From the NCBI GenBank assembly GCA_018333865.1, contig JAGXSE010000065.1, positions 48,794 to 112,793 on the forward strand: a stretch of 64,000 nt of DNA. Direction: 5' to 3'. How positions within the stretch are numbered: the first letter of the stretch is position 1; the number at the start of each line of letters is the position of its first letter. Of this stretch, positions 47,279 through 64,000 are shown one piece after another. The translations under genes were made by a program, and so were the position numbers. The notes under the pieces are model-generated. The model made no database searches. It was given only the letters and a program-made list of their open reading frames with translations, and had not been told where the DNA came from. The stretch comes from Syntrophomonadaceae bacterium. Its GTDB lineage: Bacteria > Bacillota > PH28-bin88.

Positions 47279-49078
47279 TTAAAGTTCTCCGGTAAGGATA
47301 ATTCCTCCAAAACCCTGTACCCGGGGCAGTGCCAGCTGGTTGCCGGAAACCGGGTAGGAATAGCCCGTGCTGCAATCTGAAAAAACAATGTCCGGCGGTA
47401 CCTGAGGCAGGGTGATCACTAGACCGTGTAGTTCCTGGTGCTTATTTAAAACAACAATGGCAATCTCCTGTTCGTTGCGCCTCAGGTAGTAATATAGCCC
47501 CCTGTGATCATCAGCAAATAATGTTTCAAAAGTACCGGTTTTTAGAACCGGGTGCTTGTGCCGTATAGTGATGAGGGTTTTGTATAGTGAGAAGAGCTCT
47601 TGATCATGGCAGTCCTTTACCCAGCCCATGGTGCTGCGGCAGCCTGGGTCCGGGCCCCCGGTCATTCCTACCTCATCGCCATAATAAACCATTGGCGCTC
47701 CTAGATAAGTCATTTGAAATATCAGGGCAGGCCGCAGACGGTCCTTTGCAGTCTGATATGCTTCTTTTTCAGTCAGCCCATGGGGCAGATGGCTGATGAA
47801 CTCTGTGATAATTCTGGCTGTGTCGTGGCTTCCAAGCAAGTTTAGCAGGCAACCATGCACCTGCTCCGGGTAGCGCAGGCGAATCAGGCCCAAAAGATAG
47901 TCAAAGGTCTTGAGCCCAATTCTGTCTTTGGCAAAGCAATCGATGACAAGATCGCGGAAAAGGTAATTCATCACCCCGTCGAACTGGTCGCCCTGCAGCC
48001 AAGGCCTGCCATCCCGCCATATTTCGCCAACAATGTAGGTTTCCGGGTCAATCCCTTTTACCACCTGGCGAAACTCCTGCCAAAACTTGTGCTCCACTTC
48101 ATTAGGCACATCCAGGCGCCAGCCGTCCGCGCCTCTTTTTGTCCATAAGGCGGCAGTCTCTAATAAATATTTTCTCACTTCGGGGTTTTTTACATTTAAT
48201 TTGGGCAGGTCGGCAAAATCCCACCAACAGGCGTAGTTGGGCGGGTGTTTGCAGATGGGGCAATCGTAAATATAATACCAGTCTATATAGCGGGAGGCAT
48301 ATCCATGCTGCACAATATCCTCAAAGGCCCAGAACTCGTCACCGGTATGATTAAATACACAATCCAGAACCAATTTAATTTGATGCTGCCGAAAGATATC
48401 TACCAGATGATCAAAAGTAGCCAGATCCCCGAAATGAGGATCTACTTTCCTGAAATCCATGGTATCATACTTGTGATTAGAAACCGAGGCAAAAATAGGA
48501 TTTAACCAAACAGCATTAACACCGAGTTCAGCCAGGTAGCGGATTTTAGCAGCAATTCCTTGCAGGTCCCCGCCAAAGAAATTTGTTCTGGTTGGTATCC
48601 CGCCCCAGGGTTCAGTATTTGGCGGGTCGTTGCTGGGATCTCCGTTATAAAACCTTTCCGGAAATATCTGATAGAAGACAGCTGACTGAACCCAGTCCGG
48701 TACAACAAAAACCTGTTCAGGCTGCCAGGAGCCGCAAAACGGTTGCAGGTCCTCGGGGAAGTCAATTCCTGCCTCTACCCCGCTTGATCCAACCCAGTAA
48801 CTGAAACCATTACAAACAAGTTGAAAAAAATATTTCAGCTGAGGTTTGCTGGTTGTAACAAAGGTTTGATAATATACGGACTTGGGGGTATATGCAAAGG
48901 GATACATAATTTTGGGCTGCCAATCTTCCTCCAAGTACCAGACCTGGCAGGTTGCCTCGGATTTCGGTCTGACCCGCAATTTAAGGGATACCATATTTGG
49001 TTTAACCGGGTTAAAGTATCGTGTGACTTGGCGGTGGTAAAACCGGAAGGGTAACATACCGTTCTCTTTTCTGTTCAA
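47279..49078 (-). CDS. GH13 alpha-amylase family glycosidase (cyclomaltodextrinase/neopullulanase-like)
   Basis: 599 aa on the reverse strand with GH13 motifs WLNPIF, DGWRLDVPNEV, GEIW, LLGSHD. Confidence 0.85.
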   Translation of the reverse strand: MNRKENGMLPFRFYHRQVTRYFNPVKPNMVSLKLRVRPKSEATCQVWYLEEDWQPKIMYPFAYTPKSVYYQTFVTTSKPQLKYFFQLVCNGFSYWVGSSGVEAGIDFPEDLQPFCGSWQPEQVFVVPDWVQSAVFYQIFPERFYNGDPSNDPPNTEPWGGIPTRTNFFGGDLQGIAAKIRYLAELGVNAVWLNPIFASVSNHKYDTMDFRKVDPHFGDLATFDHLVDIFRQHQIKLVLDCVFNHTGDEFWAFEDIVQHGYASRYIDWYYIYDCPICKHPPNYACWWDFADLPKLNVKNPEVRKYLLETAALWTKRGADGWRLDVPNEVEHKFWQEFRQVVKGIDPETYIVGEIWRDGRPWLQGDQFDGVMNYLFRDLVIDCFAKDRIGLKTFDYLLGLIRLRYPEQVHGCLLNLLGSHDTARIITEFISHLPHGLTEKEAYQTAKDRLRPALIFQMTYLGAPMVYYGDEVGMTGGPDPGCRSTMGWVKDCHDQELFSLYKTLITIRHKHPVLKTGTFETLFADDHRGLYYYLRRNEQEIAIVVLNKHQELHGLVITLPQVPPDIVFSDCSTGYSYPVSGNQLALPRVQGFGGIILTGEL

Positions 49079-49201
49079 CCTTAGCTCACTCCATTCAACT
49101 TTAGATCAGGGAGGGTTTTGTTTTAAGCCTTATTTATGGTATTATTTGATAGACAGGTAAAAAATATGTTCTTCCAGGATAAGTGATGAGGGATGAATTG
49201 G

Positions 49202-50269
49202 ATGGTTAAGGTACGGGCCAGAATACTCAAAACAGGGATTGCTATAGCTTTAGCGCTAACTTTCGCCTCATGGATGGAGCTAAAGCCTGGTACTCTGGCA
49301 GCTGTTGCTGCTGTAATTGCCATGCAGCCCTCGATCGGCAAATCATATGATAACACCAAGATCCAACTGGTGGCCAATATTTTTGGCGCGGCAGTAGGAA
49401 TGGTCTTTGCCCTTTATATCGGGTATCATCCTGTGCTAATTGGTATCGCCGCCGTTTTAGTGATGACAGTTGTGATCAGGTTGGGGTTTGCTGATGCGGT
49501 AATCATGGCAGCCATTACCGTAATTGCGATCATGGACAACCCGGATCCTAATATGCTTCAATTTGCACTAAACAGGCTGGCCTTAGTAACATTGGGGTTA
49601 GCGACAGCTTTCGCCGTTAATATAGTAATCATGCCGCCTGATTATAGATCCCGATTGTTGGAGGAAATCGACCATGCCCGCAAAAAACTGGAGGGACTGA
49701 TGGAGGCTGTCAATGCTGAGGCTGCCGGTTCTAACCTTGATAATAAGTACCTTGTTAAACAAATGGCTGACAATATAAGATCAGAAATCAATAAGTGCCG
49801 GGAATTATCTAGCCTGGCAACAGAAAACAGGCTGCCTTTTTTGCAGCCTGGAAAACAGCTGGAAGATGCTGACCGCTGGATCAATGCCATGTATACCAAC
49901 CTGGAGCGACTGTTAGAAGTCCACCACAGCGGGGTTCTGATCGCTGCCGAAGATAAAATGGCGGAACAAAGACAGGAACTGGCAGAACTTGGCCGGCTTG
50001 CCCTGGAAATCCACCGCCAAGTATACAACCATCTGATTTTTGACCAGGATCTGGATTCTAATCTAGCAAACGAATATAGCATAAAACAAATGCAAATCAA
50101 AAGGAGTATTATGCAGGTCTACCGCACTAAAGATATGTTTGAATACCACAATATTCTAATGGAGTATAACCGGCTGGTGCGAAAAACCTGCAAATTGACC
50201 CCAGTCTTAGCCCTAGAACTCGATAATTTGAGTGTTGCGCCGGTCCAACAGGAGCCGGCTTCCCTTTAA
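49202..50269 (+). CDS. FUSC / aromatic-acid-exporter family membrane protein
   Basis: N-terminal multi-TM domain then long helical cytoplasmic domain, as in YgaE-type FUSC proteins. Confidence 0.7.
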   Translation: MVKVRARILKTGIAIALALTFASWMELKPGTLAAVAAVIAMQPSIGKSYDNTKIQLVANIFGAAVGMVFALYIGYHPVLIGIAAVLVMTVVIRLGFADAVIMAAITVIAIMDNPDPNMLQFALNRLALVTLGLATAFAVNIVIMPPDYRSRLLEEIDHARKKLEGLMEAVNAEAAGSNLDNKYLVKQMADNIRSEINKCRELSSLATENRLPFLQPGKQLEDADRWINAMYTNLERLLEVHHSGVLIAAEDKMAEQRQELAELGRLALEIHRQVYNHLIFDQDLDSNLANEYSIKQMQIKRSIMQVYRTKDMFEYHNILMEYNRLVRKTCKLTPVLALELDNLSVAPVQQEPASL

Positions 50270-50292
50270 TATTCTTAACAAATGGTTTGGTG

Positions 50293-51453
50293 CTAAAAAA
50301 TACTGGTCTCCTTAGGTTTATCGTTTCCACTACAGGAAAATCTGGCTGGGGACAGGCTCTTGATTTCCATGGAACGTACCTTTCTATCAACCAGCAGTTC
50401 AGCCAGTAGCAAGCCAATAGCTGGCGCATGCATGAAACCATGGCCGGTAAAGCCGTTAGCACAATAAAAACCTTCTGCCTCCTGCGCCTCCCCCAGGACA
50501 GGCTGGAAGTCGGGGGTAACTGACCTGAGCCCGGCATAGGCCTTGCTGATCTTTGCTTCGTTCAGGAGAGGTATTCGCTTAATTGCGGCTTGGGCGACCG
50601 TTTCCAAGCCGCTCCAATCGACAGAAATATCCATGCCCGGGGCTGTTGTTTTATCAGTACCCCCCATTAAAAGCTGCCCGTTTAGTTCTTGATGCAGGTA
50701 AAATCCGCTGTCCATATCAACTGTTAGGGGTATATTCCTGGGCAAGCTAGGGATGGGCTCGGCTACAAAAACCTGCCGCCGGTAGGGTGTTACCGGCAGG
50801 TTTACCCCTGCTAAACCGGCCACACTGGCGGCATAGGGGCCACCGGCATTGATGATCCTTGTTGTCGAGACAGTTTGTTTGCTGGTAATCACACGCCGGA
50901 CCTTCCCTTTTTCAACGCCAATGCCAATAACTGGTTCTTCAAAAAAATATTTGACACCAAGCCTTTTCCCGCTATTCAAATAGCCTTTAACCATTTCCGA
51001 TGGATCTGCAGATCCGTCAATAGAGCAAAAACTGCCCCCCTGAAGGTCAGTGGTGATCAGGTATGGAAACCGCCGGGCGATTTCATCCCTGTATAAAAGT
51101 TCAGAGGGTACGCCCAATTCTTGCTGTAGCAGAATATCCTTGGCAAACAATTCCATTTGCGCAGGGCAAGCAGTAACAAATAGGTAGCCGTTTTGCCGGT
51201 AGTTGATGTGATAGCCCATTTCTTCTGCAAAGGATTGAAAAAATGGGACACTCAGGAGAGAAAGCTGAATGTTTTCCCTGGCGGAAAATTGGTAGCGGAT
51301 GCCGCCGGTGCAGGCCGCCGTGGAACCGGTTCCTTCAAACTTTTCTTTTTCCAAAACAATGACCTTTAAGCCAGGGTCTTTTTTCTTCAAGTTATAGGCA
51401 ACGCTTAACCCAATGATTCCGGCTCCAATCACGACTACATCGGCCATATGCAC
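50293..51453 (-). CDS. FAD-dependent oxidoreductase (DAO family)
   Basis: N-terminal VVVIGAGIIGLSVAY dinucleotide fold, about 386 aa. Confidence 0.8.
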   Translation of the reverse strand: MHMADVVVIGAGIIGLSVAYNLKKKDPGLKVIVLEKEKFEGTGSTAACTGGIRYQFSARENIQLSLLSVPFFQSFAEEMGYHINYRQNGYLFVTACPAQMELFAKDILLQQELGVPSELLYRDEIARRFPYLITTDLQGGSFCSIDGSADPSEMVKGYLNSGKRLGVKYFFEEPVIGIGVEKGKVRRVITSKQTVSTTRIINAGGPYAASVAGLAGVNLPVTPYRRQVFVAEPIPSLPRNIPLTVDMDSGFYLHQELNGQLLMGGTDKTTAPGMDISVDWSGLETVAQAAIKRIPLLNEAKISKAYAGLRSVTPDFQPVLGEAQEAEGFYCANGFTGHGFMHAPAIGLLLAELLVDRKVRSMEIKSLSPARFSCSGNDKPKETSIF

Positions 51454-51650
51454 TGTGCGTCACTCCTAATCGACATGATATCCTCATCTTATACTTTACA
51501 ATGCTTTCCCGTCAACCCAATGTAATTCAGCATGATTAGATCAAACTCGCCTGGATCAGTCCGGACATTGGCTTGAGGCATGAAAGGATTTCGATTGCCG
51601 GATGCAGAAGTAACTATTAACGTCATTATTCTGGAGGGTGCAGATAAAAT

Positions 51651-52694
51651 ATGCAGTTTGATAAACCAGTACTGGCCATAGACGTGGGCGGAGGGACCCA
51701 GGATATTTTTTTATTTCAACCCGGTCAATCCGTGGAAAACTCTGTGCAGATGGTCCTGCCTTCCCAGACCCAGGTAATTGCCCGTCAGATCAGGGAAATC
51801 ACCGACAGACGAGAAGACCTGTTCCTGACGGGGAGTTTAATGGGCGGGGGGGCTTCCAGTTCAGCCATCCGAAAACACCTTGCCGCCGGGTGCCGGGTTT
51901 ATGCTAACCCTGAGGCCGCCAAAACCCTGGACGATGACCTGCATAAGGTGCGGGCAACGGGAGTTATAATTACTGAAAGCCAACCCAGAAACACTGTCTC
52001 AGTTACAATGGGCGATATCAACCTGCCGGCCCTGGCAGCGGCTCTAAAGACTTTTGCCGTTGAACTGCCGGAACAGATTGTGGTTGCTGTGCAGGACCAT
52101 GGGGAAAGCCCGGGCTTCAGCAACAGGTTATTCCGCTTCCAGCACTGGCAGCGTTTTGTAGCTGAAGGTGGTGATATCAGACGGCTTTTATACAGTGAGG
52201 TTCCCTCATACCTGACCAGGATGCTGGCAGTTAAAGCTTTGCTACCCCAGGCTTATCTGGCCGATACGGGTACCGCTGCCATTTGGGGGGCATTGGAAGA
52301 CCCGCAGGTGGCCGTAAAACAGGCTGAAGGGGTAATCCTGCTCAATGTGGGAAATCAGCATACGGTGGGAGTGCTGCTGAAAAAATGGCAAGTCTATGGG
52401 CTGTTTGAACACCATACCGGCTTGCTGAATTCTGGAAAGTTGATTGACTATATCGAAAGGCTCCGCATGGGAGCATTAACCCATGCCGAAGTATACCAGG
52501 ATGGCGGTCATGGCTGTTATATCAGCCCAGACTATAATCCGGCGTCAGGGTTTAATCTGGTAGCCGTCACCGGGCCAAGACGAGCCATGACATGGGGAGC
52601 TGGGTATTATTTGGCTGTGCCCCACGGCAACATGATGCTGGCCGGCGCCTTCGGACTGGTAGCAGCATTGGCTGCCCGACAAATAGAGCAATAA
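51651..52694 (+). CDS. ASKHA-fold protein (possibly DUF1786-like)
   Basis: N-terminal LAIDVGGGTQDIF phosphate-1-like motif; no Fe-S Cys motifs; assignment from memory. Confidence 0.4.
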   Translation: MQFDKPVLAIDVGGGTQDIFLFQPGQSVENSVQMVLPSQTQVIARQIREITDRREDLFLTGSLMGGGASSSAIRKHLAAGCRVYANPEAAKTLDDDLHKVRATGVIITESQPRNTVSVTMGDINLPALAAALKTFAVELPEQIVVAVQDHGESPGFSNRLFRFQHWQRFVAEGGDIRRLLYSEVPSYLTRMLAVKALLPQAYLADTGTAAIWGALEDPQVAVKQAEGVILLNVGNQHTVGVLLKKWQVYGLFEHHTGLLNSGKLIDYIERLRMGALTHAEVYQDGGHGCYISPDYNPASGFNLVAVTGPRRAMTWGAGYYLAVPHGNMMLAGAFGLVAALAARQIEQ

Positions 52695-53415
52695 AGCATA
52701 CAAATCGCAATATTTTATACTTGTCTGGGAAAAACATAAATAATAAGCTTAAAATTAAGAAGGATACAAGGAGGTTTTCACTATGTCTGTATTGGAGGAT
52801 ATCAAACAAGCAGTGATTGACGGGAACGCTCCCAAGGTGAAAGCTATAACTGAAAGAGCTCTGGTCGAAGGAATCAGTATTAACGACATCATCAACGAAG
52901 GCTTAATCGGTGGGATGAGCTATATCGGCGTCAGGTTTAAAAACAACGAAGTCTATGTGCCCGAGGTCTTGATTGCCGCCAGGGCGATGCATGCGGGCAT
53001 GGGTGTGATGAAACCTTTGTTAACGGGTGAAAATTTTCAATCTAAAGGCACCTTTGTAATCGGCACCGTAAAAGGTGATCTCCACGACATCGGCAAGAAC
53101 CTGGTGATCATGATGATGGAAGGAGCTGGCTTTAAGGTTGTTGACCTGGGGATAGATGTGCCAACGGAAAAGTTCATTAAAGCCATTGAGGAGCATAAAC
53201 CCCAGATTGTCGGGCTTTCAGCCTTGTTGACTACAACCATGGTCCAGATGAAAAACACCATTCAAGAACTTAAGCCTTACCGCAATGAAATCAAAGTGAT
53301 GATCGGCGGAGCGCCGCTAACCCAAAAGTTTGCCGATGAAATCGGCGCCGATGCCTATGCTCCGGATGCGGCTACTGCTGTCGAACTGGCGACAGAACTT
53401 CTGGCTTCATAGCTG
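52695..53415 (+). repeat. direct repeat copy 1 (corrinoid-protein gene plus upstream element)
   Basis: About 95% nucleotide identity by eye to 56480-57193 across the coding region; upstream shares ACAAATCGCAATAT...ACTTGTCT. Confidence 0.8.
52783..53412 (+). CDS. cobalamin-binding corrinoid protein
   Basis: 209 aa; B12-binding motif GDLHDIGKNLV (DxHxxG) and Rossmann-like domain; AAGGAGG RBS. Confidence 0.85.
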   Translation: MSVLEDIKQAVIDGNAPKVKAITERALVEGISINDIINEGLIGGMSYIGVRFKNNEVYVPEVLIAARAMHAGMGVMKPLLTGENFQSKGTFVIGTVKGDLHDIGKNLVIMMMEGAGFKVVDLGIDVPTEKFIKAIEEHKPQIVGLSALLTTTMVQMKNTIQELKPYRNEIKVMIGGAPLTQKFADEIGADAYAPDAATAVELATELLAS

Positions 53416-53432
53416 AAAGGAGGCCGACCTCA

Positions 53433-54227
53433 GTGCTGGTTGTCGGCGAATTAATCAATTCTACCCGTAAAGCCATTGCCCAGGCCCTGGAGCAAAGAGA
53501 CCAGGCTTACCTGCAGGATTTGGCCCGGCGCCAGGTAGAGGCTGGCGCTTTGATCATCGATGTCAATGCGGCAATCGGTGGTAATGAAGCTGATCGCATG
53601 AAGTGGCTGGTAGAAATCGTGCAGGAAGCGGTGGGGGTGCCTCTTTGTATTGACAGTCCAAGTGCTGCTGCTATTGAGGCCGGTCTGGCCGTCTGCCGGG
53701 AAAAAGCCATGCTGAACTCCATTACGGCAGAAGACTACCGTTGGAACGAACTCTTGCCAGTTGTGCAAAAGTACAAGCCCCGCGTAATCGCCCTTTGTAT
53801 GGGTGACGGACCAATGCCTGAAACTACCCTTGACCGCCTGCGGGAAGCAGAAAAACTGGTGCCAGGCCTGGTGGCTGCGGGCATCCCGATTGAGGACATT
53901 TACCTTGATCCATTAATTAAACCCCTGGGGGTTAATACTAAACATGCTATGGAAGCCTTAGAAAGCACCCGTGCCTTACGCCTGGAATATCCCGGTGTAC
54001 ATATTATCTGTGGTTTATCCAATGTTTCTTTTGGCCTGCCAGAGCGTCGCCTGTTAAACAGAGCCTTTATGGTGATGGCAATTTCCTCTGGCATGGATGC
54101 CCTTATTATGGATCCCCTGGATCACCCTACCATGTCCTTCTTAGCGGCTGCCAGGGCTTTAGTTGGGCAGGACGAATACTGCCTGGAATACATTGCCGGT
54201 GTCAGGTCAGGAAGGGTTAAGGCTTAG
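53433..54227 (+). CDS. pterin-binding methyltransferase (methylcorrinoid:tetrahydrofolate type, MtrH/AcsE-like)
   Basis: 264 aa DHPS-like barrel; GELINS start, IDVNAA and HIICGLSNVSFGLP segments. Confidence 0.7.
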   Translation: MLVVGELINSTRKAIAQALEQRDQAYLQDLARRQVEAGALIIDVNAAIGGNEADRMKWLVEIVQEAVGVPLCIDSPSAAAIEAGLAVCREKAMLNSITAEDYRWNELLPVVQKYKPRVIALCMGDGPMPETTLDRLREAEKLVPGLVAAGIPIEDIYLDPLIKPLGVNTKHAMEALESTRALRLEYPGVHIICGLSNVSFGLPERRLLNRAFMVMAISSGMDALIMDPLDHPTMSFLAAARALVGQDEYCLEYIAGVRSGRVKA

Positions 54228-54259
54228 AGAAAGGTAATAAAAAATGGGGGTGGCTAAAA

Positions 54260-55405
54260 ATGGGAGCACTAACCCCGCGGGAACGGGTCCGGCGGGCACT
54301 AAGTTTCCAGGAGCCTGACCGGGTTCCCACCGATGTGGGAACCAGTGCAGCGACAGGGATCACCCTGGGGGCTTATGAGCAATTAAAGCAGTATCTAAAG
54401 ATGCCTGATGCTACTGGGAGCGTAAATCACTTGATGTTTCAGACGGTAACGGCAGATCACCGGGTGCTGGAAAGGCTGGGAGTGGATTTCCGTCCGGTAT
54501 ACTATCGCCCGCCTGCCGAAAACAAGGGTATTTGGGGGCCTGATGACACTTTTGTCACAGAATGGGGGTTTACTGTCAAACGGCCTGAAGGCGGCCTGTA
54601 TTATGACATTATTAAAAGCCCATTGCTAGAGGCAGAAATAGAAGACCTGGACAGGTATCCCTGGCCGGATCCCCATGACCCAGGCCGGATCGCCGGAGTG
54701 GCTAAAGAGGCCAAGGAACTCTACGAGCAGACAGATTATGCAATATTTGGCCCGGGCATGGAAGGCGGATTTTTCGAGCTTTCCTGGTATTTAAGAGGAA
54801 TAGAGCGCTTTTTTATGGACCTAATCGAAAACAAAGAGTTTGTCCACGCCCTGTTCCGGAAGCTTTTGGATTATCGCAAGGCTTTATTGGGACGTTATCT
54901 TGATGCAGCAGGAAAATACCTGGATGTAGTGTATTACGGGGACGACATCGCCATGCAGACCGGCCCTTTGATGTCTTTAGGGCTCTACCGGGAGCTGGTC
55001 AAGCCCTATCAAAAAGAGCTGTTCAGTTTTATTAAAGAAAAGACCGAGGCCAAGCTCTTCTACCACACCTGTGGCAGCGTGGTAAAGTACTTGGACGATC
55101 TGATCGAGATCGGGGTTGATATCATTAACCCCGTTCAGGTCAGCGCCAAGGATATGGATACTGCCAGGTTAAAGCAAAGCTATGGCCATCGGCTGGTATT
55201 CTGGGGCGGGATCGATACCCAGCATGTCTTGCCTTTTGGTACAGAAGAAGAAGTAGAGGAAGAGGTAAAAAGGCGGATTAAAGACCTGGCTCCGGGCGGC
55301 GGCTATGTCTTGGGGCCTGTGCATAACGTCCAGCCTGACGTGCCTCCCCAGAACCTGGTGCGAGTTTTCCAGGCCGCCAGCCAGTACGGTGTTTATCATA
55401 GATAG
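54260..55405 (+). CDS. URO-D/MtaA-family methyltransferase (substrate:corrinoid type), copy 1
   Basis: 381 aa with PDRVP near N-terminus and HTCGS, GGGYVLGPVHNV segments. Confidence 0.8.
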   Translation: MGALTPRERVRRALSFQEPDRVPTDVGTSAATGITLGAYEQLKQYLKMPDATGSVNHLMFQTVTADHRVLERLGVDFRPVYYRPPAENKGIWGPDDTFVTEWGFTVKRPEGGLYYDIIKSPLLEAEIEDLDRYPWPDPHDPGRIAGVAKEAKELYEQTDYAIFGPGMEGGFFELSWYLRGIERFFMDLIENKEFVHALFRKLLDYRKALLGRYLDAAGKYLDVVYYGDDIAMQTGPLMSLGLYRELVKPYQKELFSFIKEKTEAKLFYHTCGSVVKYLDDLIEIGVDIINPVQVSAKDMDTARLKQSYGHRLVFWGGIDTQHVLPFGTEEEVEEEVKRRIKDLAPGGGYVLGPVHNVQPDVPPQNLVRVFQAASQYGVYHR

Positions 55406-55659
55406 CTACCCGCTCTAATCCCCCCACTAGTTGGGACATTCCTTTAAAGCGGCGGGATAAGAGCGGTTACGCTACACAAAGTTGGGGACATTCCTGTCCC
55501 AAAAAAATGGCCTGAGCTTCAGCAGGTGTGTCCCCGTTCCTTTTATCTGGCTCTAAGCTTCAGTGGGGGTAGTAATCCCCCCTCTGAAGCCAAGACCCAG
55601 TTGAACCAATCAGATTATAGCCCCTTCGATAGCTTAAAATAACCCAAGTATAAAACAGG

Positions 55660-55695
55660 CTGGAAGTGCCTTCGCCTAGGCGAAGGCACTTCCAG
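55660..55695 (+). repeat. 36-nt perfect inverted repeat (hairpin)
   Basis: CTGGAAGTGCCTTCGCC-TA-GGCGAAGGCACTTCCAG; no T-run on the plus side, T-rich on the minus side. Confidence 0.7.
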
Positions 55696-55723
55696 CAATT
55701 CTCATGGCCTCTAGCAACGCAGA

Positions 55724-55751
55724 TTGCATTTTTCGCCATTTCCTTTATAAT
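55724..55751 (+). promoter_or_regulatory. sigma-A-type promoter for the small two-gene cassette
   Basis: TTGCAT at 55724-55729, 16-nt spacer, TATAAT at 55746-55751. Confidence 0.45.
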
Positions 55752-55809
55752 CTAAGATAGCAGTGGTATGATGTCAAGCAACTAAATAGTATACCAAGGG
55801 GGTGTTTTT

Positions 55810-56067
55810 ATGGTTCCGTCACCCAAAGTTAAGAAACATCTCAGTGAGATCAAAAGAGAGCAGTGGACAGAGGCGGAATTGAGAGAGCTGCTCAAAGCCA
55901 TTGCCCGGGATTTCCAATTGCAAATCGAGATATCCGGCGAATCTGCAGATGATGATTTTTGGGCACTCACCCCGGATGAGGATCAGCATTTCAATGACCT
56001 GCTGGTCAAATCAGCGAGAGACACCAAAAATAAGTGTTTTACCGAATACAGTAGGCCGCAGCTCTAA
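55810..56067 (+). CDS. small acidic protein (antitoxin-like)
   Basis: 85 aa; acidic C-terminal half; ATG with AAGGGGG RBS; 2 nt from the next ORF. Confidence 0.3.
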   Translation: MVPSPKVKKHLSEIKREQWTEAELRELLKAIARDFQLQIEISGESADDDFWALTPDEDQHFNDLLVKSARDTKNKCFTEYSRPQL

Positions 56068-56069
56068 TC

Positions 56070-56396
56070 ATGCGCAGAAAGATCAGATTTCGCAGAACTC
56101 ATACCTATAATGAGGAATTGTTAAACATCCGGGAATTCAACCGGGAATTGGCCGAACAGATTGAAGAAAAGCGAGAGTATTTTGAGCGTTGCCTGACCAA
56201 TCCCCCTTACCTTCCGTCACCAGGCCTCAACATGGAGACACTGGAGGGTAAAATTACCCGGCCCGATTGGCTGAGAGGGTACCCTAAACTATACAGCTTC
56301 AGGGTGAATAAATATGCCCGAGTAATTTTCTGGTGGGCTGAAGACGGAACATGCGAGTATTTATTTCCTTTTGCCAAGCATTACAGAAGAAGTTGA
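56070..56396 (+). CDS. small basic protein with RelE/YoeB-like C-terminal pattern (toxin-like)
   Basis: 108 aa; C-terminus YSFRVNKYARVIFWWAEDGTCEYLFPFAKHYRR fits the RelE/ParE/YoeB core pattern. Confidence 0.3.
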   Translation: MRRKIRFRRTHTYNEELLNIREFNRELAEQIEEKREYFERCLTNPPYLPSPGLNMETLEGKITRPDWLRGYPKLYSFRVNKYARVIFWWAEDGTCEYLFPFAKHYRRS

Positions 56397-56423
56397 AGCT
56401 TCCTGCGAGGGAGGCTTTTTTTT
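56397..56423 (+). terminator. rho-independent terminator
   Basis: Stem AGCTTCC/GGAGGCT (one G-U) followed by TTTTTTTT. Confidence 0.6.
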
Positions 56424-56479
56424 CAGTTCTTCAAAATGCTGGCTAACATTAAACACCAAAAAAGCAAAATAACAAACAA

Positions 56480-57193
56480 ATCGCAATATATTGAACTTGT
56501 CTTATGGAAGGCAAAGGCAGTAGTATTAGATTAAGGAAAGGACTACAAAGGAGGTATTTGATACCAGTGTTGGAAGATATCAAGCAAGCAGTGATTGACG
56601 GGAACGCTCCCAAGATGAAAGCTATTACTGAAAGAGCACTGGCCGAAGGAATCAGTATTAATGACATCATCAACGAAGGCTTAATCGGCGGGATGAGCTA
56701 TATCGGTGTCAAGTTTAAAAACAACGAAGTATATGTGCCCGAGGTCTTGATTGCCGCCAGGGCAATGCATGCAGGCATGGGTGTGATTAAGCCCTTGTTA
56801 ACTGGTGAAAATTTTCAATCTAAAGGCACCTTCGTAATCGGCACCGTAAAAGGTGATCTCCACGACATCGGCAAGAACCTGGTGATCATGATGATGGAAG
56901 GCGCCGGCTTTAAGGTAGTTGACCTGGGGATAGATGTACCAACGGAAAAGTTTATTCAAGCGATCGAGGAGCACAAACCCCAAATTGTCGGGCTTTCAGC
57001 CTTGTTGACCACAACCATGGTCCAGATGAAAAACACCATTCAAGAACTGAAGCCTTACCGCAATGAAATCAAGGTGATGATCGGCGGAGCGCCGGTTACC
57101 CAAAAGTTTGCCGATGAAATCGGAGCCGATGCCTATGCCCCCGATGCGGCCACAGCTGTAGAACTGGCGACAGATCTACTGGCTTCATAGCTA
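56480..57193 (+). repeat. direct repeat copy 2 (corrinoid-protein gene plus upstream element)
   Basis: Near-identical to 52695-53415; see copy 1. Confidence 0.8.
56567..57190 (+). CDS. cobalamin-binding corrinoid protein, copy 2
   Basis: GTG 56567 aligns with copy 1 N-terminus (VLEDIKQAVIDG); same GDLHDIGKNLV motif; AAGGAGG RBS. Confidence 0.85.
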   Translation: MLEDIKQAVIDGNAPKMKAITERALAEGISINDIINEGLIGGMSYIGVKFKNNEVYVPEVLIAARAMHAGMGVIKPLLTGENFQSKGTFVIGTVKGDLHDIGKNLVIMMMEGAGFKVVDLGIDVPTEKFIQAIEEHKPQIVGLSALLTTTMVQMKNTIQELKPYRNEIKVMIGGAPVTQKFADEIGADAYAPDAATAVELATDLLAS

Positions 57194-57337
57194 TTGTTGA
57201 CATTAATCTGACTGCGCCATCCATCGTTAAGCACCAAAATTTCTTGTGTTGCCAATGTCTGATTATAAAGGATTTCTTAAAAGAGAAATTTGTGCGCCAG
57301 GATCTAACTTGTGATCGTGATAGTGTTTAAGTTGAAA

Positions 57338-57360
57338 GAAGTATTTGCACAGAATACTTC
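57338..57360 (+). promoter_or_regulatory. 8-bp-stem hairpin between corrinoid gene 2 and the methyltransferase
   Basis: GAAGTATT-tgcacag-AATACTTC; not followed by a T-run. Confidence 0.3.
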
Positions 57361-57415
57361 TATGCAATAAAAAGTTTGAATATTATGAGATTTTAAGAAC
57401 GGAGGCTTGCTAGGC

Positions 57416-58513
57416 ATGACCGAAATGAAACCTAGGCAACGTGTCTTAACAGCATTAAACTTAGGAGTTCCAGATAGGGTTCCATTTATGGAAAGTGCTA
57501 TAGATGAGATTTTACAGGTTCAATTAATGGGCAGAGATAATTTTACCCCAGATGAGCTATGTGAAAAATTGGGATTGGATGCTTTTGGTTATGACTATCC
57601 TGCTACCGGTGGAGAGCTAGGAACAGGGGAAGTTGCAAGGGGTATAACCACCCATGATGTATATTACTTTCCTAAAAGAATAACTTTTGATTTCCTGCCT
57701 CCGTGGATCGCTGATAAAGGAGAGGGGGTGGCGGGGCGTAGTTTTATAAAAAAAGGATTGCTAACCGATAATGATTCCATTGCACTATTTGATAAATTTC
57801 TTCCCGATCCCCATCACCTAGCCCGATACGACATTGTTTCTGATTGGATATCAAAATACAAAAAAGACTATGCGGTTTTTGCCCGCATTCGGCTGGGTGC
57901 AGCTCCCACGATTAATAGCATGGGCTTTGAGGAGTTGTGTTACAAAATTTTCGACAACCCCAATTTAGTTAAGGAAGTACACAGGAGGTTTTCTGAATGG
58001 ACGGCTCAGGTTATTCAGCACCTAAATAAAATGGACTTTGATTTTATTTGGGCGGCTGACGATATAGCCGATAATAAAGGTCCTTGGTTTTCACCAGCGA
58101 TTTTTCAAGAATTCTTTTTACCGTATATGAAGATTGCAGCCGATGAAATTAAGAAACCATGGGTCTTTCACAGTGACGGTAATTTGTTCCCTATTATGGA
58201 TGATTTGTTATCCTTGGGGATGCAAGGCATCCACCCATTGCAGCCTGCTGCAATGGACATTGTAAAAATGAAGGAAGATTACGGCCACAGGGTATGCCTT
58301 GTTGGTAATATCGATCTTGATTATACATTGACCCGGGGAACACCTGAAGAAGTGGAAGAGGAGGTTAAACAGCGGATTGAAACGATTGGCCAGAAAGGAG
58401 GTTATATTGTTAGCAGTGCTAATAGTCTAGCTTCATATGTAAAACCGGAGAATGCCTTAGCTTTGGGGCAAGCAGTCAAAAAGTACGGAAAGTATCCCTT
58501 AATTATTGATTGA
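57416..58513 (+). CDS. URO-D/MtaA-family methyltransferase, copy 2 (divergent paralog)
   Basis: PDRVP N-terminal motif, HSDGN and GGYIVSSANS segments; distant from copy 1. Confidence 0.8.
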   Translation: MTEMKPRQRVLTALNLGVPDRVPFMESAIDEILQVQLMGRDNFTPDELCEKLGLDAFGYDYPATGGELGTGEVARGITTHDVYYFPKRITFDFLPPWIADKGEGVAGRSFIKKGLLTDNDSIALFDKFLPDPHHLARYDIVSDWISKYKKDYAVFARIRLGAAPTINSMGFEELCYKIFDNPNLVKEVHRRFSEWTAQVIQHLNKMDFDFIWAADDIADNKGPWFSPAIFQEFFLPYMKIAADEIKKPWVFHSDGNLFPIMDDLLSLGMQGIHPLQPAAMDIVKMKEDYGHRVCLVGNIDLDYTLTRGTPEEVEEEVKQRIETIGQKGGYIVSSANSLASYVKPENALALGQAVKKYGKYPLIID

Positions 58514-58614
58514 TTAAAACGAGGGGGGGGAGATTTTATATAAGTGTTCGGTGTAGTAACTTTTGTGTTGTGGAATAACAGCTAAAACATGATATTTGAA
58601 AGGGGGAGGGTTAG

Positions 58615-59712
58615 ATGAGTAAACCTGAAAAAAGAAAATATATGTTAGCTTTATTGTTAATGGTTTTGTTAACAGTAGTGTTTTTTAGTGCAGGCTGTGC
58701 ACCCAGAGATCAGAAAGCTGCGGAAGGACCACCAGCACCAGCTCAAAAAGAGAAACATACCTGGGAAATGCAGTCTTGGACTTGGCCTGGCTTGGAACCT
58801 AAGCATAGTATAGTCCATGATTTTGCCAAAAGAGTGTACGAGGCATCTGGTGGTCGCCTTGAAATCATCATGCATCCACGGGAAGCGGTTGTGCCGGGTT
58901 GGGAGGCTACTGAAGCAGTAGGAAGGGGCATATTAGACATGTCCTTTGAGTGGCCAGGAGTTATGGCAGGGAGATGGGGGGATGTAGGCTTTAATCTTTT
59001 TTCGCCTCCTCCCATGTCCCTCCGAGAAGGTTGGCAGGTAACTTCCTGGTTTTACGACTGGGGTGTGCTAGATATAATGCGGGAAGCATTCGCTAAACAC
59101 AATGTTTATGTTGCTGGTATAACCTTTTGGCAACAAGAGAGCTTACATTCCAAAAAGCCAATTCGAGGAATCGCAGATCTACGAGGAGTAAAAGTCAGAA
59201 CCCCTCCAGGCATAACTTCGGACTTTTTTAGAGCGTTGGGAGCCTCTCCAGTTGTTTTGCCTCCGCCTGAAATTTATTCATCATTGGATAGAGGGGTAAT
59301 TGACGCTGCTGAGTGGGTAACTCCAGTCGGAAACTTTGCCTCAGGTTTCCAAGAAGTGACTGAATACGTGCTTTGGCCATCACCACATCAAGAATTTGCT
59401 ACTGTATATGTAGCAGTAAACATGGATTCCTGGAATGCATTATCTCCTGAACTCAAAGCTATATTTAAGGGAGCTTTAGCGGAGTTTTCCTGGAGGCATG
59501 CATACGAACCTTATTTAGCGGATTATCAAACAATTAAGAAATATATTGCAGCAGGAAATGAACATATTCAGTGGTCTGATGCAGAATTAAAAAAGGCACG
59601 AATAATTGCCAGAGATTTATGGCGTTCTTATGGTAAACAAAGCCCACTTGCAGCAAAATTGGTAGAAAAGCTTGAGTCATATCTGAAAACGATCGGAGAA
59701 ATGCCTGAATAG
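58615..59712 (+). CDS. TRAP transporter substrate-binding lipoprotein
   Basis: Signal peptide with lipobox FSAGC; about 340-aa mature domain; directly upstream of DctQ/DctM-type permease genes. Confidence 0.65.
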   Translation: MSKPEKRKYMLALLLMVLLTVVFFSAGCAPRDQKAAEGPPAPAQKEKHTWEMQSWTWPGLEPKHSIVHDFAKRVYEASGGRLEIIMHPREAVVPGWEATEAVGRGILDMSFEWPGVMAGRWGDVGFNLFSPPPMSLREGWQVTSWFYDWGVLDIMREAFAKHNVYVAGITFWQQESLHSKKPIRGIADLRGVKVRTPPGITSDFFRALGASPVVLPPPEIYSSLDRGVIDAAEWVTPVGNFASGFQEVTEYVLWPSPHQEFATVYVAVNMDSWNALSPELKAIFKGALAEFSWRHAYEPYLADYQTIKKYIAAGNEHIQWSDAELKKARIIARDLWRSYGKQSPLAAKLVEKLESYLKTIGEMPE

Positions 59713-59747
59713 CAACTTGTTTTTAGCTCAAATCAAGTAGAACTATT

Positions 59748-59788
59748 GGAGGAGGGAAGGGATGCCTTGTCATTTTTATCCCTCCTCC
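59748..59788 (+). other. intercistronic stem-loop
   Basis: 10-bp perfect stem GGAGGAGGGA/TCCCTCCTCC with a 21-nt loop. Confidence 0.5.
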
Positions 59789-59885
59789 AAACTCTAAGTT
59801 TAGCGGTTGAAAGGAAGTCCTGCTAAAAATATTTTCAAAGCACCCGATGGGCATCTTTGAGTAAAACAGAGGAGGGATGAATAAC

Positions 59886-60383
59886 ATGGGGTATTTTTTT
59901 CGCCTCGTAGATATGACAAACGAATTGGTCGGCAAATTGATGAGCATCATCGTTGTTGCAACAGTGTTGATTATTACTTTTGGAGTGATCATGCGGTATA
60001 TTTTTAAGTCACCTATTCCGGTAGTTTTTGAGTTAACCATATATCCTCTTGCAGCAGTATATGCACTTTCGACTGGTTACGCACTTCTCCACAACGCCCA
60101 TGTAAATGTCGACGCAATAATCCACAGATTATCGCCTAGACACAGACTTATACTGGCCTTTGCGACCTTTCCGGTTTTTTTGGTTTTTTGTGCTGCGCTG
60201 ATTTGGAGCGGATTCCCGTGGGCATGGCATTCGTTTTTAATAAATGAAACAAGCGGGTCGTCGTGGAGCCTAAAATTATACCCATATAAGTTTGCACTGC
60301 CAATTGGAGCAGTATTGTTGCTCCTTCAAGGTACGGTTAACTTGATCCGTCAGATGGATCTAACTAAGAAAGCTTCAAAATAA
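59886..60383 (+). CDS. TRAP transporter small permease (DctQ-like)
   Basis: About 165 aa, four TM helices; ATG 59886 chosen for GGAGGG spacing. Confidence 0.65.
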   Translation: MGYFFRLVDMTNELVGKLMSIIVVATVLIITFGVIMRYIFKSPIPVVFELTIYPLAAVYALSTGYALLHNAHVNVDAIIHRLSPRHRLILAFATFPVFLVFCAALIWSGFPWAWHSFLINETSGSSWSLKLYPYKFALPIGAVLLLLQGTVNLIRQMDLTKKASK

Positions 60384-60457
60384 TGGCAGTGTCGAGTATG
60401 GTGTATGTTTGGGATCCGGGTAAGGTTGCAGTGTTAGAAAGGTAGGCATCGGATGAA

Positions 60458-61777
60458 ATGAATATTGAATTGATTACATTAGTTGTTATTATATCTTTCC
60501 TAGGTCTATTAATGGCGGGAGTGCCCATGGCCTTTACTATGGGTGGGAGTGCGATAGTTTTAACCCTTATTTTGTGGGGGCCAGACTTTATTCCCCTGAT
60601 TCTTATGCGCATTTTTGAACAGATGGCAAGTTATACTTTTGTGGCAGCACCAATGTTTATTTTTATGGCTTCGGTCTTAGAGCGAATTGGTGTCGCAGAG
60701 GAATTGTTTGAAGGGATATACTCCTGGATCGGCTCTATCCGCGGAGGTTTAGCGATAACTGTTGTGATCGCATGTACTATTCTAGCTGCTATGGTGGGCA
60801 TTATTGGGGCGGGTATTGTATTAATGGGGTTAATTGCCCTACCTCAGATGCTGAAACGTGGGTACGATAAAAACCTAGCAACGGGAACCATCATGGCCTC
60901 AGGTTGTCTAGGAATTCTAATTCCCCCCAGTATATTATTCGTCGTCTATTCTATGGTTGCTGGCGTATCTGTAGGGAAGCTGTTTGCAGGAGCTATAATC
61001 CCTGGGCTCATGCTTTCTTTCGCGTACGTATTATATATTACTATCAGATGTTATTTAAATCCAAAAATAGGTCCTGCTGCCAATGAGAAAAACTTGGAAC
61101 CTATTTCTATAAAAAAGAAGTTAATGCTTTTGAAAAATCTTATTGCCCCCATGCTTTTAATAGTAACTGTTATGGGCAGCATTTTTTTTGGGATTGCAAC
61201 CCCTACAGAAGCAGCCGGCGTAGGAAGTTTTTGCGCGCTTTTAATCGCGGTTGCCCGGGGTAAGCTTAGTTTTCTTATGCTGAAAGAAACTGCGATGCAA
61301 ACAGTCAAGGTATCAGCGATGATCATGTGGATAATTTTTGGTGCAACAGCCCTAATTTCTGTGTATACCCGCGCCGGTGGAGCTAGATTTATGGAAGAGG
61401 TTATCCATGCATTGCCTCTAGGACCATGGGAACTTTTTATTGCGGTACAAATGCTATTTTTTATTATGGGATTTTTTCTCGATTGGATTGGCATTCTTAT
61501 GTTAACAGGCCCACTTTTAATACCGATAATGGCTGAGATAGGATTTGATCCTCTATGGTTTGGTATCGTGTTTGCGCTTAATATGCAAATGGCTTTTTTA
61601 ACACCGCCATTTGGCCCAGCGATGTTTTATATGAAAGGTGTAGTGCCTGCCGAGATTAAAATTACAGATTTGTATCGGGCTGTCATTCCTTTTATTTGTC
61701 TGCAGTTGCTAGTTCTGATTATCGTCATTTTATATCCATCACTTGCCCTATGGCTGCCAGCGAAGTTATTCCCTTAA
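60458..61777 (+). CDS. TRAP transporter large permease (DctM family)
   Basis: 439 aa, about 12 TM helices, typical DctM pattern. Confidence 0.9.
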   Translation: MNIELITLVVIISFLGLLMAGVPMAFTMGGSAIVLTLILWGPDFIPLILMRIFEQMASYTFVAAPMFIFMASVLERIGVAEELFEGIYSWIGSIRGGLAITVVIACTILAAMVGIIGAGIVLMGLIALPQMLKRGYDKNLATGTIMASGCLGILIPPSILFVVYSMVAGVSVGKLFAGAIIPGLMLSFAYVLYITIRCYLNPKIGPAANEKNLEPISIKKKLMLLKNLIAPMLLIVTVMGSIFFGIATPTEAAGVGSFCALLIAVARGKLSFLMLKETAMQTVKVSAMIMWIIFGATALISVYTRAGGARFMEEVIHALPLGPWELFIAVQMLFFIMGFFLDWIGILMLTGPLLIPIMAEIGFDPLWFGIVFALNMQMAFLTPPFGPAMFYMKGVVPAEIKITDLYRAVIPFICLQLLVLIIVILYPSLALWLPAKLFP

Positions 61778-61942
61778 TTCTAGTTATGGCCCGAAGTGGA
61801 ACCAAGATCGTGGTATGTGAACATAAATTTTTTTACAGCAGAATCATATATTTTAATTAACAAGGCTAGCAAATATTATTGTTAGAATTTATGCTGATAC
61901 TTAGTAAAATATAGTTAACAGGAGCCAGGAGGGGTTATCGCG

Positions 61943-62899
61943 GTGAAATTGCATGTGGTGATTGCAGATTTTCGTTGGGAAGATTTATCCTGCGAACAAA
62001 ACATCTTTTCCCCTAACGGTATCGAGATAGCTGGTTTCCAATGTGACACAGAAGAAGAAGTGCTATCTGCCTGTAAGGAGGCGGACGGAATTATTACTAC
62101 TGCTAGCCCAATTTCGGCGCGAGTCATCCAGGGAATGAAAAAATGCAAGGTTATTTCCAGATACGGGATCGGTTATGATAATGTGGATATTAAGGCTGCT
62201 TCGGCCCAAGGTATTATTGTGTGCAATGTCCCAGATTATTGCATTGACGAAGTAGCCGATCATGCCTTCACTTTAATAATGGCCTTGGTAAGAAAACTAA
62301 ACCCATATGCTCAAAGTGTTAGGGATGGTTTATGGGATTACCCCTTGTATAAACCAATCTTTAGGTTGAAAGGCAAGGTCTTAGGCCTTGTTGGTTTTGG
62401 AAATATTGCTCGTAACCTTGCGCGAAAAGCTCAGTGTTTCGGCCTGGAAATTATTGCTTTTGATCCCCATGTCTCCGGTGCGGAAATGGAACAATTAGGA
62501 GTTTCCCCTGTGAGTTTAGATCAACTATGTCGTGTTTCTGATATTATTTCTGTACATGTACCATTGGCAGATTCAACCAGGGGCATCATTGGTCAGCAAC
62601 AGCTCGAAAAAATGAAGCCCACTGCGATCTTGATCAATACCGCCCGCGGGCCGGTGGTGAATGAAGATGCCTTAATAAGTGCTTTGGAAGCAAAAACAAT
62701 TGCAGGTGCAGGTTTGGATGTAGTCACGAAAGAACCTATTGATATTAATAATCCCTTGCTAATGATGCCGAATGTTATTGTGACCCCTCATATGAGTTGG
62801 TATTCCAAAGAGGCAGAAGAAGAACTACGAATAAAAGCCGCAAATAATGTTCTTTCCGTTTTGAAAGGTGAAAACCCTAAGTACAGGGTCAACAGCTGA
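61943..62899 (+). CDS. D-isomer-specific 2-hydroxyacid dehydrogenase (NAD-binding)
   Basis: GLVGFGNIARNLARKA NAD-binding motif and catalytic Arg/Glu/His arrangement; GTG start with GGAGGGG RBS. Confidence 0.9.
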   Translation: MKLHVVIADFRWEDLSCEQNIFSPNGIEIAGFQCDTEEEVLSACKEADGIITTASPISARVIQGMKKCKVISRYGIGYDNVDIKAASAQGIIVCNVPDYCIDEVADHAFTLIMALVRKLNPYAQSVRDGLWDYPLYKPIFRLKGKVLGLVGFGNIARNLARKAQCFGLEIIAFDPHVSGAEMEQLGVSPVSLDQLCRVSDIISVHVPLADSTRGIIGQQQLEKMKPTAILINTARGPVVNEDALISALEAKTIAGAGLDVVTKEPIDINNPLLMMPNVIVTPHMSWYSKEAEEELRIKAANNVLSVLKGENPKYRVNS

Positions 62900-63541: not shown

Positions 63542-63624
63542 TTCCAATGAATTTATAGACCCTTTAATTCTGCAATCGCAATAGCAATAGGAAAAACTAA
63601 TTGACAAAGAGAGGTGCTTGGTTA

Positions 63625-64000
63625 GTGAGACCAGATAAGCCTGATTTTGAAAGAATAAAAACAGCTCTATATTGCAAAGAGCCTGACAGGGTACCATTGG
63701 CCGAGTTAATTATAGATCCTAAAGTAAGAGCTGGATTTATGGGCAAACCGGTTGACGACATCAAGACGAATGTGGAATTTTGGGCCGCAGCTGGATATGA
63801 TTATATTATACTATCGAAAGGATTGCTTGAACCTGGGCATGTGTTGGAAGGTACAGCAGTCCAAAAAACAAGAAGTGAAACAAGCCTTTATGGAAATGGA
63901 GTTGAAGAGAGAGATTGGGCTAATTTGCATGAAGGTGTCATAAAAACCGAAGCAGATTTTGAAAAATTTAATTGGCCTGATCCTGATTCATTGGATTACT
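63625..64000 (+). CDS. URO-D/MtaA-family methyltransferase, copy 3 (5' partial, runs off window)
   Basis: GTG 63625 with AGAGAGGTG RBS; N-terminus VRPDKPDFERIKTALYCKEPDRVP parallels the other URO-D paralogs. Confidence 0.6.
   Translation, partial: MRPDKPDFERIKTALYCKEPDRVPLAELIIDPKVRAGFMGKPVDDIKTNVEFWAAAGYDYIILSKGLLEPGHVLEGTAVQKTRSETSLYGNGVEERDWANLHEGVIKTEADFEKFNWPDPDSLDY

Follow-up and report, generated by a model that had tools for sequence, protein, structure and literature searches.

Two genes for corrinoid proteins (CPs), CP1 and CP2, lie as direct repeats separated by 3.7 kb in a 64-kb stretch of DNA (the window) from a metagenome-assembled genome of the Syntrophomonadaceae. Each is preceded by a copy of the same short sequence block, and we asked how the pair arose and what the block does. 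CP1 (52783-53412, plus strand; MBS3977697) starts with ATG and encodes 209 amino acids (aa), while CP2 (56567-57190, plus strand; MBS3977702) encodes 207 aa when read from a GTG. Both proteins match the Pfam families B12-binding_2 (PF02607; E=1e-20 to 3e-21) and B12-binding (PF02310; E=6e-31 to 2e-31), well above the cut-offs. The matches are arranged as an N-terminal B12-binding_2 cap followed by a C-terminal B12-binding Rossmann domain, as in proteins of the MtaC/MtbC/MtgC type. The DxHxxG motif, which provides the histidine lower ligand to cobalt, is present as GDLHDIGKN, and D99, H101, and G104 are invariant in 12 of 12 aligned relatives.

The start of CP2 needed closer inspection. Its ancestral ATG is now ATA (56561-56563), both in the window and in a sister species described below. 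The start is likely the GTG at 56567, with a ribosome-binding site (AAAGGAGG) about 10 nt upstream. Public databases hold this protein in three versions, of 207, 209, and 228 aa. The 228-aa version begins at an ATG at 56504, which falls within the predicted promoter, and the longer open reading frame (ORF) is therefore unlikely to be real.

CP1 is the first gene of an operon that continues with a gene for a pterin-binding methyl-tetrahydrofolate (methyl-THF):corrinoid methyltransferase (53433-54227, plus strand; Pfam Pterin_bind) and a gene for a URO-D family methyltransferase, URO-D1 (54260-55405, plus strand; Pfam URO-D). Within this stretch (53433-55405), NCBIfam PRK07535 was matched at 331.9 bits versus a cut-off of 259, and the two genes occupy part of the 3.7 kb that separates the repeats. 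CP2 has as its partner module a second URO-D family methyltransferase, URO-D2 (57416-58513, plus strand; identified by Pfam). The three-component corrinoid methyltransferase systems of acetogens and Desulfitobacterium, including the O-demethylase and MtgABC types, consist of a substrate methyltransferase, a corrinoid protein, and a methyl-THF-forming methyltransferase. The locus resembles them in placing a CP beside a pterin-binding methyl-THF:corrinoid methyltransferase, URO-D/MtaA-family methyltransferases, and a substrate transporter. Unlike those systems, it has CPs that fall below the cut-off of every substrate-specific NCBIfam equivalog (MtgC, MtbC, and MtaC; the best was MtgC_2, at 247 bits versus 370), and its conserved upstream neighbor is a DUF1786 gene rather than a RACo-type activase. 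The DUF1786 gene (51651-52694), annotated as a putative pyruvate formate-lyase activating enzyme, lies directly 5' of CP1.

To compare the two copies with their relatives, we used single-copy orthologues from two other uncultured lineages, L081 (84% protein identity; gene order DUF1786, CP, pterin methyltransferase, pyr genes) and L082 (87%; ArAE, CP, pterin methyltransferase). CP1 is the positional orthologue of the CP in both. More distant operons of CP and pterin methyltransferase occur in Moorella (L084), in Clostridiales PH28_bin88 (L086), and on metagenome contigs L095 and L096. A GTDB genome scan and a metagenome scan with the CP proteins returned only relatives of 70% identity or less. 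The sister species (L181) was reached through its URO-D2 orthologue (P0129, 88% identical), and it carries the same island minus CP1. One database protein, P0124, was considered as a mosaic or recombinant and rejected, since it is the sister-species orthologue. Two others, P0125 and P0127, mix CP1-type and CP2-type residues. They belong to the same 90% cluster and lie on contigs of only 1.35 to 1.38 kb, and they may be true recombinant alleles or assembly chimeras across the repeat.

Pairwise alignment of CP1 and CP2 gave 41 differences among 618 aligned coding bases. The identity is 93.4%, not the roughly 95% that an earlier note on this DNA had estimated by eye, and local alignment with the flanks gave 91.7% over 726 columns. 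The pair is nevertheless far more alike than the URO-D paralogs, as had been claimed, because URO-D1 and URO-D2 share only 27% amino acid identity. Third codon positions account for 36 of the 41 differences, and 7 differences change an amino acid. Nonsynonymous divergence (dN) is 0.015 and synonymous divergence (dS) is 0.23 to 0.29, giving a dN/dS of about 0.05. Since the synonymous sites are unsaturated, the likeness is not mere protein-level constraint. Third-position identity is 82.5% between CP1 and CP2 versus 57 to 67% to the orthologues.

This likeness has sharp limits. In 60-column windows, identity between the copies is 52 to 67% upstream and 88 to 98% within the gene, and it collapses right after the stop codon, with the last likeness ending 2 nt past it. 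Upstream of the start codon, the likeness is confined to a conserved element described below, and in these upstream windows neither copy is as close to its partner as it is to the corresponding orthologous region in another species. Inside the gene, CP1 and CP2 differ at 31 of 533 positions between nt 27 and nt 560, versus 93 to 113 differences from the orthologues, and informative sites in this tract favor CP1 with CP2 by 35:3:0. In the first 27 nt (6 differences) and the last 70 nt (8 differences), the two copies resemble each other no more than orthologues do. By this segment comparison, the homogenized tract spans approximately 52810-53342 in CP1 and 56588-57120 in CP2, both on the plus strand. 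Sharp limits at about nt 27 and about nt 560, together with likeness at synonymous sites, point to interlocus gene conversion.

The upstream regions tell a different story from the genes. The coding tree unites CP1 and CP2 with the sister CP in 500 of 500 bootstraps (498 of 500 with third positions only), and within this clade CP2 pairs with the sister CP (473/500). We then built trees from the upstream regions, from the GCAA site to the ribosome-binding site (88 to 98 nt), calling the CP1 promoter region A and the CP2 promoter region B. Here window A, sister A, and L081 group together (459 to 461 of 500), and promoter B groups with L082 (331 to 394 of 500). Window A and window B come together in only 0 to 2 of 500. 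The grouping survives when the columns overlapping DUF1786, or the whole conserved element, are dropped. Parsimony-informative sites split 1:7:1 in the upstream region and 36:4:1 within the gene (Fisher P=2e-5). Between A and B, 35 of 88 upstream positions differ (40%) and, outside the element, 28 of 49 (57%), a divergence as large as that of either from the L086 promoter. Thus, the paralogues cluster although their flanks show the pair to be older than the split from the compared species, which is the pattern that gene conversion leaves.

The earlier note had proposed a recent duplication that included the upstream element. In that model, a segment of about 730 bp carrying promoter and gene was copied recently, the free upstream sites then diverged fast, and selection held the block and the coding region. 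It fits the observations that the likeness does reach upstream to the conserved element and that a dS of 0.25 is modest. In addition, no CP gene lies next to the URO-D2 orthologues of Desulfitibacter and Thermanaeromonas, so CP2 and a CP-type promoter would have been added in this lineage. However, faster change produces unique differences and not states in common with L081 or L082, of which there are 7, and it does not account for upstream regions that group with different species. Since the sister species split off, promoter B has acquired only 5 changes in 170 positions, at a CP2 dS of 0.10 to 0.13. Therefore, a duplication at a dS of about 0.26 cannot explain the divergence of A from B, and a more than ten-fold burst of change would have been needed earlier, briefly, and on both copies. 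We consider this model quite improbable. Because the upstream regions have diverged as between genera and group with different species, the block is shared through selection and not through recency. The note had also offered ongoing conversion. We favor conversion, but it does not appear to be ongoing: CP2 differs from the sister CP at 20 positions, whereas CP1 differs from either at 40 to 41. For the time after the sister split, we could demonstrate no conversion.

The sister species also shows how the island has been rebuilt. Its sole CP is at the CP2 position, and the 170-nt upstream region with its copy of the element is 97% identical to that of the window. Comparison of L181 5247-5345 with window 52688-53440 showed that, in the sister, promoter A with its leader is joined directly to the pterin methyltransferase gene. 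They meet within an AAGGAGG ribosome-binding site, a sequence found in the window on either side of CP1. This suggests that the sister lost CP1 through a precise microhomology-mediated deletion, and no other rearrangement was seen in a relative.

The window has diverged from the sister species unevenly along the locus. The dS is about 0.4 to 0.5 for ArAE, the DAO-type oxidoreductase gene (50293-51453, minus strand), and URO-D2. It is about 0.15 to 0.25 for DUF1786, the pterin methyltransferase, and URO-D1, and 0 to 0.13 for CP2 (0.10 to 0.13) and two small ORFs directly 5' of it. These ORFs, of 85 and 108 aa (55810-56396, plus strand), have coding regions 2 nt apart. Window 55730-57500, which holds both ORFs, promoter B, CP2, and the spacer behind it, is 97 to 100% identical to L181 8315-10085, whereas the neighboring regions are 83 to 95% identical, with a dS of up to 0.5. 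This suggests a recent exchange of the segment between lineages. Neither small ORF matched Pfam or NCBIfam, and the 108-aa ORF gave a faint RelE-like PHROG match (E=0.005). The two may form a toxin-antitoxin pair. The sister species has an extra RHH/PIN toxin-antitoxin pair just upstream of the small ORFs (L181 7540-8246), where the window has 324 nt of unrelated noncoding DNA.

Such exchange raises a second alternative to conversion, that a cassette of the two small ORFs, promoter B, and CP2 came laterally from a close lineage with a B-type promoter. The tree conflict would then reflect recombination between lineages. The near identity of that segment agrees with this model, as do the junction beside it, which carries different insertions in each species, and the grouping of promoter B with L082. 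Against this model, the CP2 coding region is no closer to L082 (83.5%) than CP1 is (82.5%). The donor would have had to carry a B-type promoter on a CP1-like coding region, which again requires recombination at the gene ends. Moreover, no donor was found among 5.8 billion protein clusters, in which the next closest CP is 87% identical. We therefore regard lateral origin of the cassette as unlikely and retain conversion between the two copies as the probable source of their likeness.

We next considered the shared block. The sequence ACAAATCGCAATAT-N5-ACTTGTCT occurs exactly at 52700-52726 and at 56476-56502, which is 57 to 83 nt 5' of the CP1 ATG and 65 to 91 nt 5' of the CP2 GTG. The block does precede both genes, as first noticed, with the correction that its spacer is 5 nt in both copies and not 4 to 5. 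No further copy was found in the window with up to 3 mismatches allowed (chance expectation, 0). When we aligned eight CP upstream regions, from genes with 70 to 100% protein identity, the block proved to be part of a 39-nt element, GCAA-N15-GCAAk-N8-CTTGyC. The element consists of three GCAAk units. Two are direct and 19 nt apart, and the third is inverted and forms a dyad with the second; in Moorella, this dyad is perfect (GCAAG-N8-CTTGC). The window has a type A element upstream of CP1 (52688-52726, plus strand; GCAAT at 52688, then N15-GCAAT-N8-CTTGTCT) and a type B element upstream of CP2 (56464-56502, plus strand; GCAAA at 56464, then N15-GCAAT-N8-CTTGTCT), each containing its copy of the block. 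The two are identical at 32 of 39 positions, counted by eye.

Conservation of the element follows the CP genes. It is kept 5' of CP genes in L081, L082, L084, L086, L096, and L181, and thus extends to at least five further lineages, the most distant with a protein identity of 70%. Between the window and L082, which have different upstream genes, homology sets in exactly at the block. The first bases of element A overlap the DUF1786 stop codon, and the first GCAA is conserved with or without this overlap. A position weight matrix (PWM) built from seven element sites scored 53.7 for element A and 52.9 for element B, and no other position in the window reached 12. Altogether, the element was found at seven independent CP-upstream loci and was otherwise absent from the window and about 1.4 Mb of fetched loci, save for a weak match in L099 that is also upstream of a CP. 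The block is not a random occurrence, and it is a conserved candidate operator or promoter for both modules.

The position of the element suggests a promoter. Its last GCAAk unit overlaps a TTGyCn hexamer, and T-A-N3-T follows 17 to 18 nt later. This pattern is the signature of a predicted -35/-10 promoter with a weak -10. For CP1, the predicted -35 is TTGTCT (52721-52726, plus strand) and the predicted -10 is TAAGCT (52744-52749, plus strand), 17 nt after it. For CP2, they are TTGTCT (56497-56502, plus strand) and TAGTAT (56521-56526, plus strand), 18 nt apart, and elsewhere the -10 reads TAAAAT or TAAACT. Across the eight aligned sequences, no spacer column is invariant except those of the -10 T, A, and T (T105, A106, and T110 of the first sequence). 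A terminator scan found a hairpin with a T-run (56395-56418, plus strand) 3' of the 108-aa ORF, and the CP2 element starts at 56464, about 45 nt past its end. With this terminator-like feature just upstream, CP2 would need its own promoter.

Other identities for this region were considered and rejected. Rfam covariance models gave no match at E<=1 on either strand of 49000-62000, which argues against a riboswitch, such as a cobalamin riboswitch, or a known leader RNA. A CcpA cre site was rejected because it would have 3 mismatches in 10 defined positions, counted by eye. A promoter scanner match near the block on the minus strand (56514-56485) serves no gene and was treated as chance. Separately, we observed three GCAAT units with 6-nt spacing in GCAATCGCAATAGCAAT at 63572-63588, which shares ATCGCAATA with the block. 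These units lie 35 to 50 nt 5' of a third URO-D gene, which starts at 63625 and runs off the window. They are too near the start codon for the same promoter layout and may be a related operator or chance.

Because the element spans about -75 to -30, across the -35, and the -10 is weak, we infer an activator-dependent promoter. The GCAA repeats would be a candidate site at which a transcription activator binds on or beside the -35. A candidate regulator is encoded in the same island. On the same contig (L187 12814-16148, about 2.8 to 6.1 kb past the window end) are genes for a histidine kinase with B12-binding, PocR, and His_kinase domains, a response regulator with an AraC DNA-binding domain (L187 14660-15478), and DUF1638. 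The N-terminal 210 residues of the kinase are a full corrinoid-protein module with the DxHxxG motif, 47% identical to CP1. Orthologues of the kinase and regulator lie directly 3' of CP and pterin methyltransferase in L084, L086, and L096, and the pair closes the island in the window genome and in L181. Thus, every locus with enough flank, except L081, links the motif-bearing CP operon to the kinase and regulator. The likeliest activator would be the AraC-type response regulator, which would switch on both CP promoters together. Co-regulation of both modules, proposed in the earlier note, is plausible.

In Salmonella, PocR acts at the pdu and cob promoters. Activation of the methanol methyltransferase (mta) operon of Eubacterium limosum by the PocR/AraC regulator MtaR requires 50 nt immediately 5' of the -35 (PMC13602510). 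The window promoters resemble the PmtaR promoter with its activator MtaR in that they serve a corrinoid methyltransferase operon, have a weak core, carry about 40 to 50 conserved nt directly 5' of or overlapping the -35, and are genetically linked to PocR and AraC domains. They differ in that PocR is here part of a histidine kinase with a corrinoid-protein-like module, while a separate response regulator carries the AraC domain. The GCAA repeats, a site predicted here from sequence, also differ from the GAAAAT-N7-AATTTC proposed for MtaR (PMC13602510).

Instead of an activator site, the block could be a repressor operator over the -35, an A/T-rich UP element, or a promoter recognized by a different sigma factor. 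An inverted GCAAk-N8-CTTGy dyad over the -35 would also suit a dimeric repressor, the region is A/T-rich, and L081 has the element but no AraC regulator linked to it. However, a -10 that matches the consensus at only 3 to 4 of 6 positions suggests dependence on an activator, and wherever it was seen in L084, L086, L096, L181, and the window genome, the element strictly accompanies the pair of PocR kinase and AraC regulator. The E. limosum precedent points the same way. We give these non-activator readings only a modest chance and prefer the activator.

Taken together, the explanation that we find probable, if not strongly so, is that CP1 and CP2 are an old pair with their own promoters, whose coding cores were homogenized by gene conversion and which share an activator-type element. 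The two would be old paralogues, each feeding a different URO-D-type methyltransferase module and each with its own promoter of the architecture typical for CP operons of this Firmicutes group. A single conversion, at a dS of about 0.25, would have overwritten about 0.5 kb within one coding sequence before the split from the sister species. The sister would later have deleted CP1 precisely and kept CP2. Afterward, CP1 and CP2 would have diverged under strong purifying selection.

Several observations weigh against this explanation. The differences within the converted tract are fairly even, and the longest identical run is 68 nt, for which a rough estimate gives P~0.4; the run lengths show no sign of separate recent conversion tracts. 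The upstream trees rest on only 50 to 100 columns. The comparison with the sister CP, with half as many differences as separate CP1 from CP2, does not show recurrent conversion. The patchy divergence from the sister species (dS 0 to 0.5) indicates that exchange between lineages is evidently happening, and it could also yield tree conflicts. On the side of the promoter, the -35 matches the consensus at 4 of 6 positions, the -10 is as weak as noted above, and a consensus promoter scanner reported neither proposed promoter. No element was found, by exact, 3-mismatch, or PWM search, before other island genes (URO-D, transporter, or kinase) in the window, L187, and the loci of about 1.4 Mb. Finally, L081 carries the element yet has no kinase or regulator within 8 kb.

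We also asked whether the repeats rearrange the locus, since the earlier note had held that they would permit deletion or inversion of the intervening 3.7 kb. Deletion is possible. Inversion is not, because the repeats are direct and unequal recombination could only delete or duplicate the 3.7 kb. Eight independent assemblies of the population were 100% identical over their overlap with 51651-58600, and five of the eight span both copies. We found no 3.7-kb deletion or other structural variant in these eight assemblies.

The remainder of the island fits around the two modules as follows. A noncoding stretch of 400 nt separates URO-D1 from the 85-aa ORF. It contains a perfect 17-bp G+C-rich hairpin (GCTGGAAGTGCCTTCGCC/GGCGAAGGCACTTCCAGC) at 55659-55696 that has a T-run on the minus strand only, and the sister species has no counterpart to the 324 nt around it. 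The 225-nt spacer between CP2 and URO-D2 (57191-57415) is 96% conserved with the sister species and contains a 9-bp hairpin (57345-57367) without a T-run. Genes for a TRAP transporter, dctPQM (58615-61777), lie 3' of URO-D2. Beyond the window, the contig continues with the third URO-D gene, the kinase, the AraC-type response regulator, DUF1638, and then pyr genes. On the other side, DUF1786 is a conserved 5' neighbor of the unit of CP and pterin methyltransferase in three lineages (window 51651-52694; L081 6856-7911; L181 4207-5253). The linked gene in Moorella is instead one for a RACo-type corrinoid activase. Thus, DUF1786 might do corrinoid reactivation here in place of RACo.

Gene conversion between tufA and tufB is a classic case in bacteria, and the evolution of the CP pair is ordinary and of a kind known among paralogues. 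In the Methanosarcinales, the corrinoid-protein genes mtmC and mtbC, together with mtmB and mtbB, have been reported to evolve in concert (PMC6053082). As in that case, paralogous corrinoid genes are far more alike than their flanks and age predict, synonymous sites included, and the likeness ends near the gene borders. Here, however, the pair is bacterial and only the corrinoid gene is homogenized, with partner methyltransferases that remain as divergent as stated above. Also, the data point to one past event only, and nothing indicates that conversion recurred or lasted long. The pair thereby adds a bacterial example to the concerted evolution of archaeal corrinoid-protein genes. It also shows that calling a duplicate recent from coding identity alone can mislead, because the flanks reveal an old pair with a homogenized core. 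The comparison with the sister further illustrates how islands are rebuilt between close species, through precise loss of CP1 at ribosome-binding-site microhomology, swaps of toxin-antitoxin cassettes, and different transporters.

These findings leave the current understanding of the pathway unchanged. They provide a testable promoter/operator motif for CP operons in Moorella- and Syntrophomonadaceae-like anaerobes, along with a candidate regulator. Tentatively, and with less confidence than the explanation above, the 39-nt element could be the operator of a previously uncharacterized two-component system. Its kinase, with a corrinoid module and PocR, would sense the corrinoid or methyl-donor state of the cell and thereby exert feedback on how much shared carrier is supplied, while conversion would keep the carriers interchangeable. 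If this is true, one regulator and one methyl-THF-forming methyltransferase could serve several substrate-specific URO-D methyltransferases.

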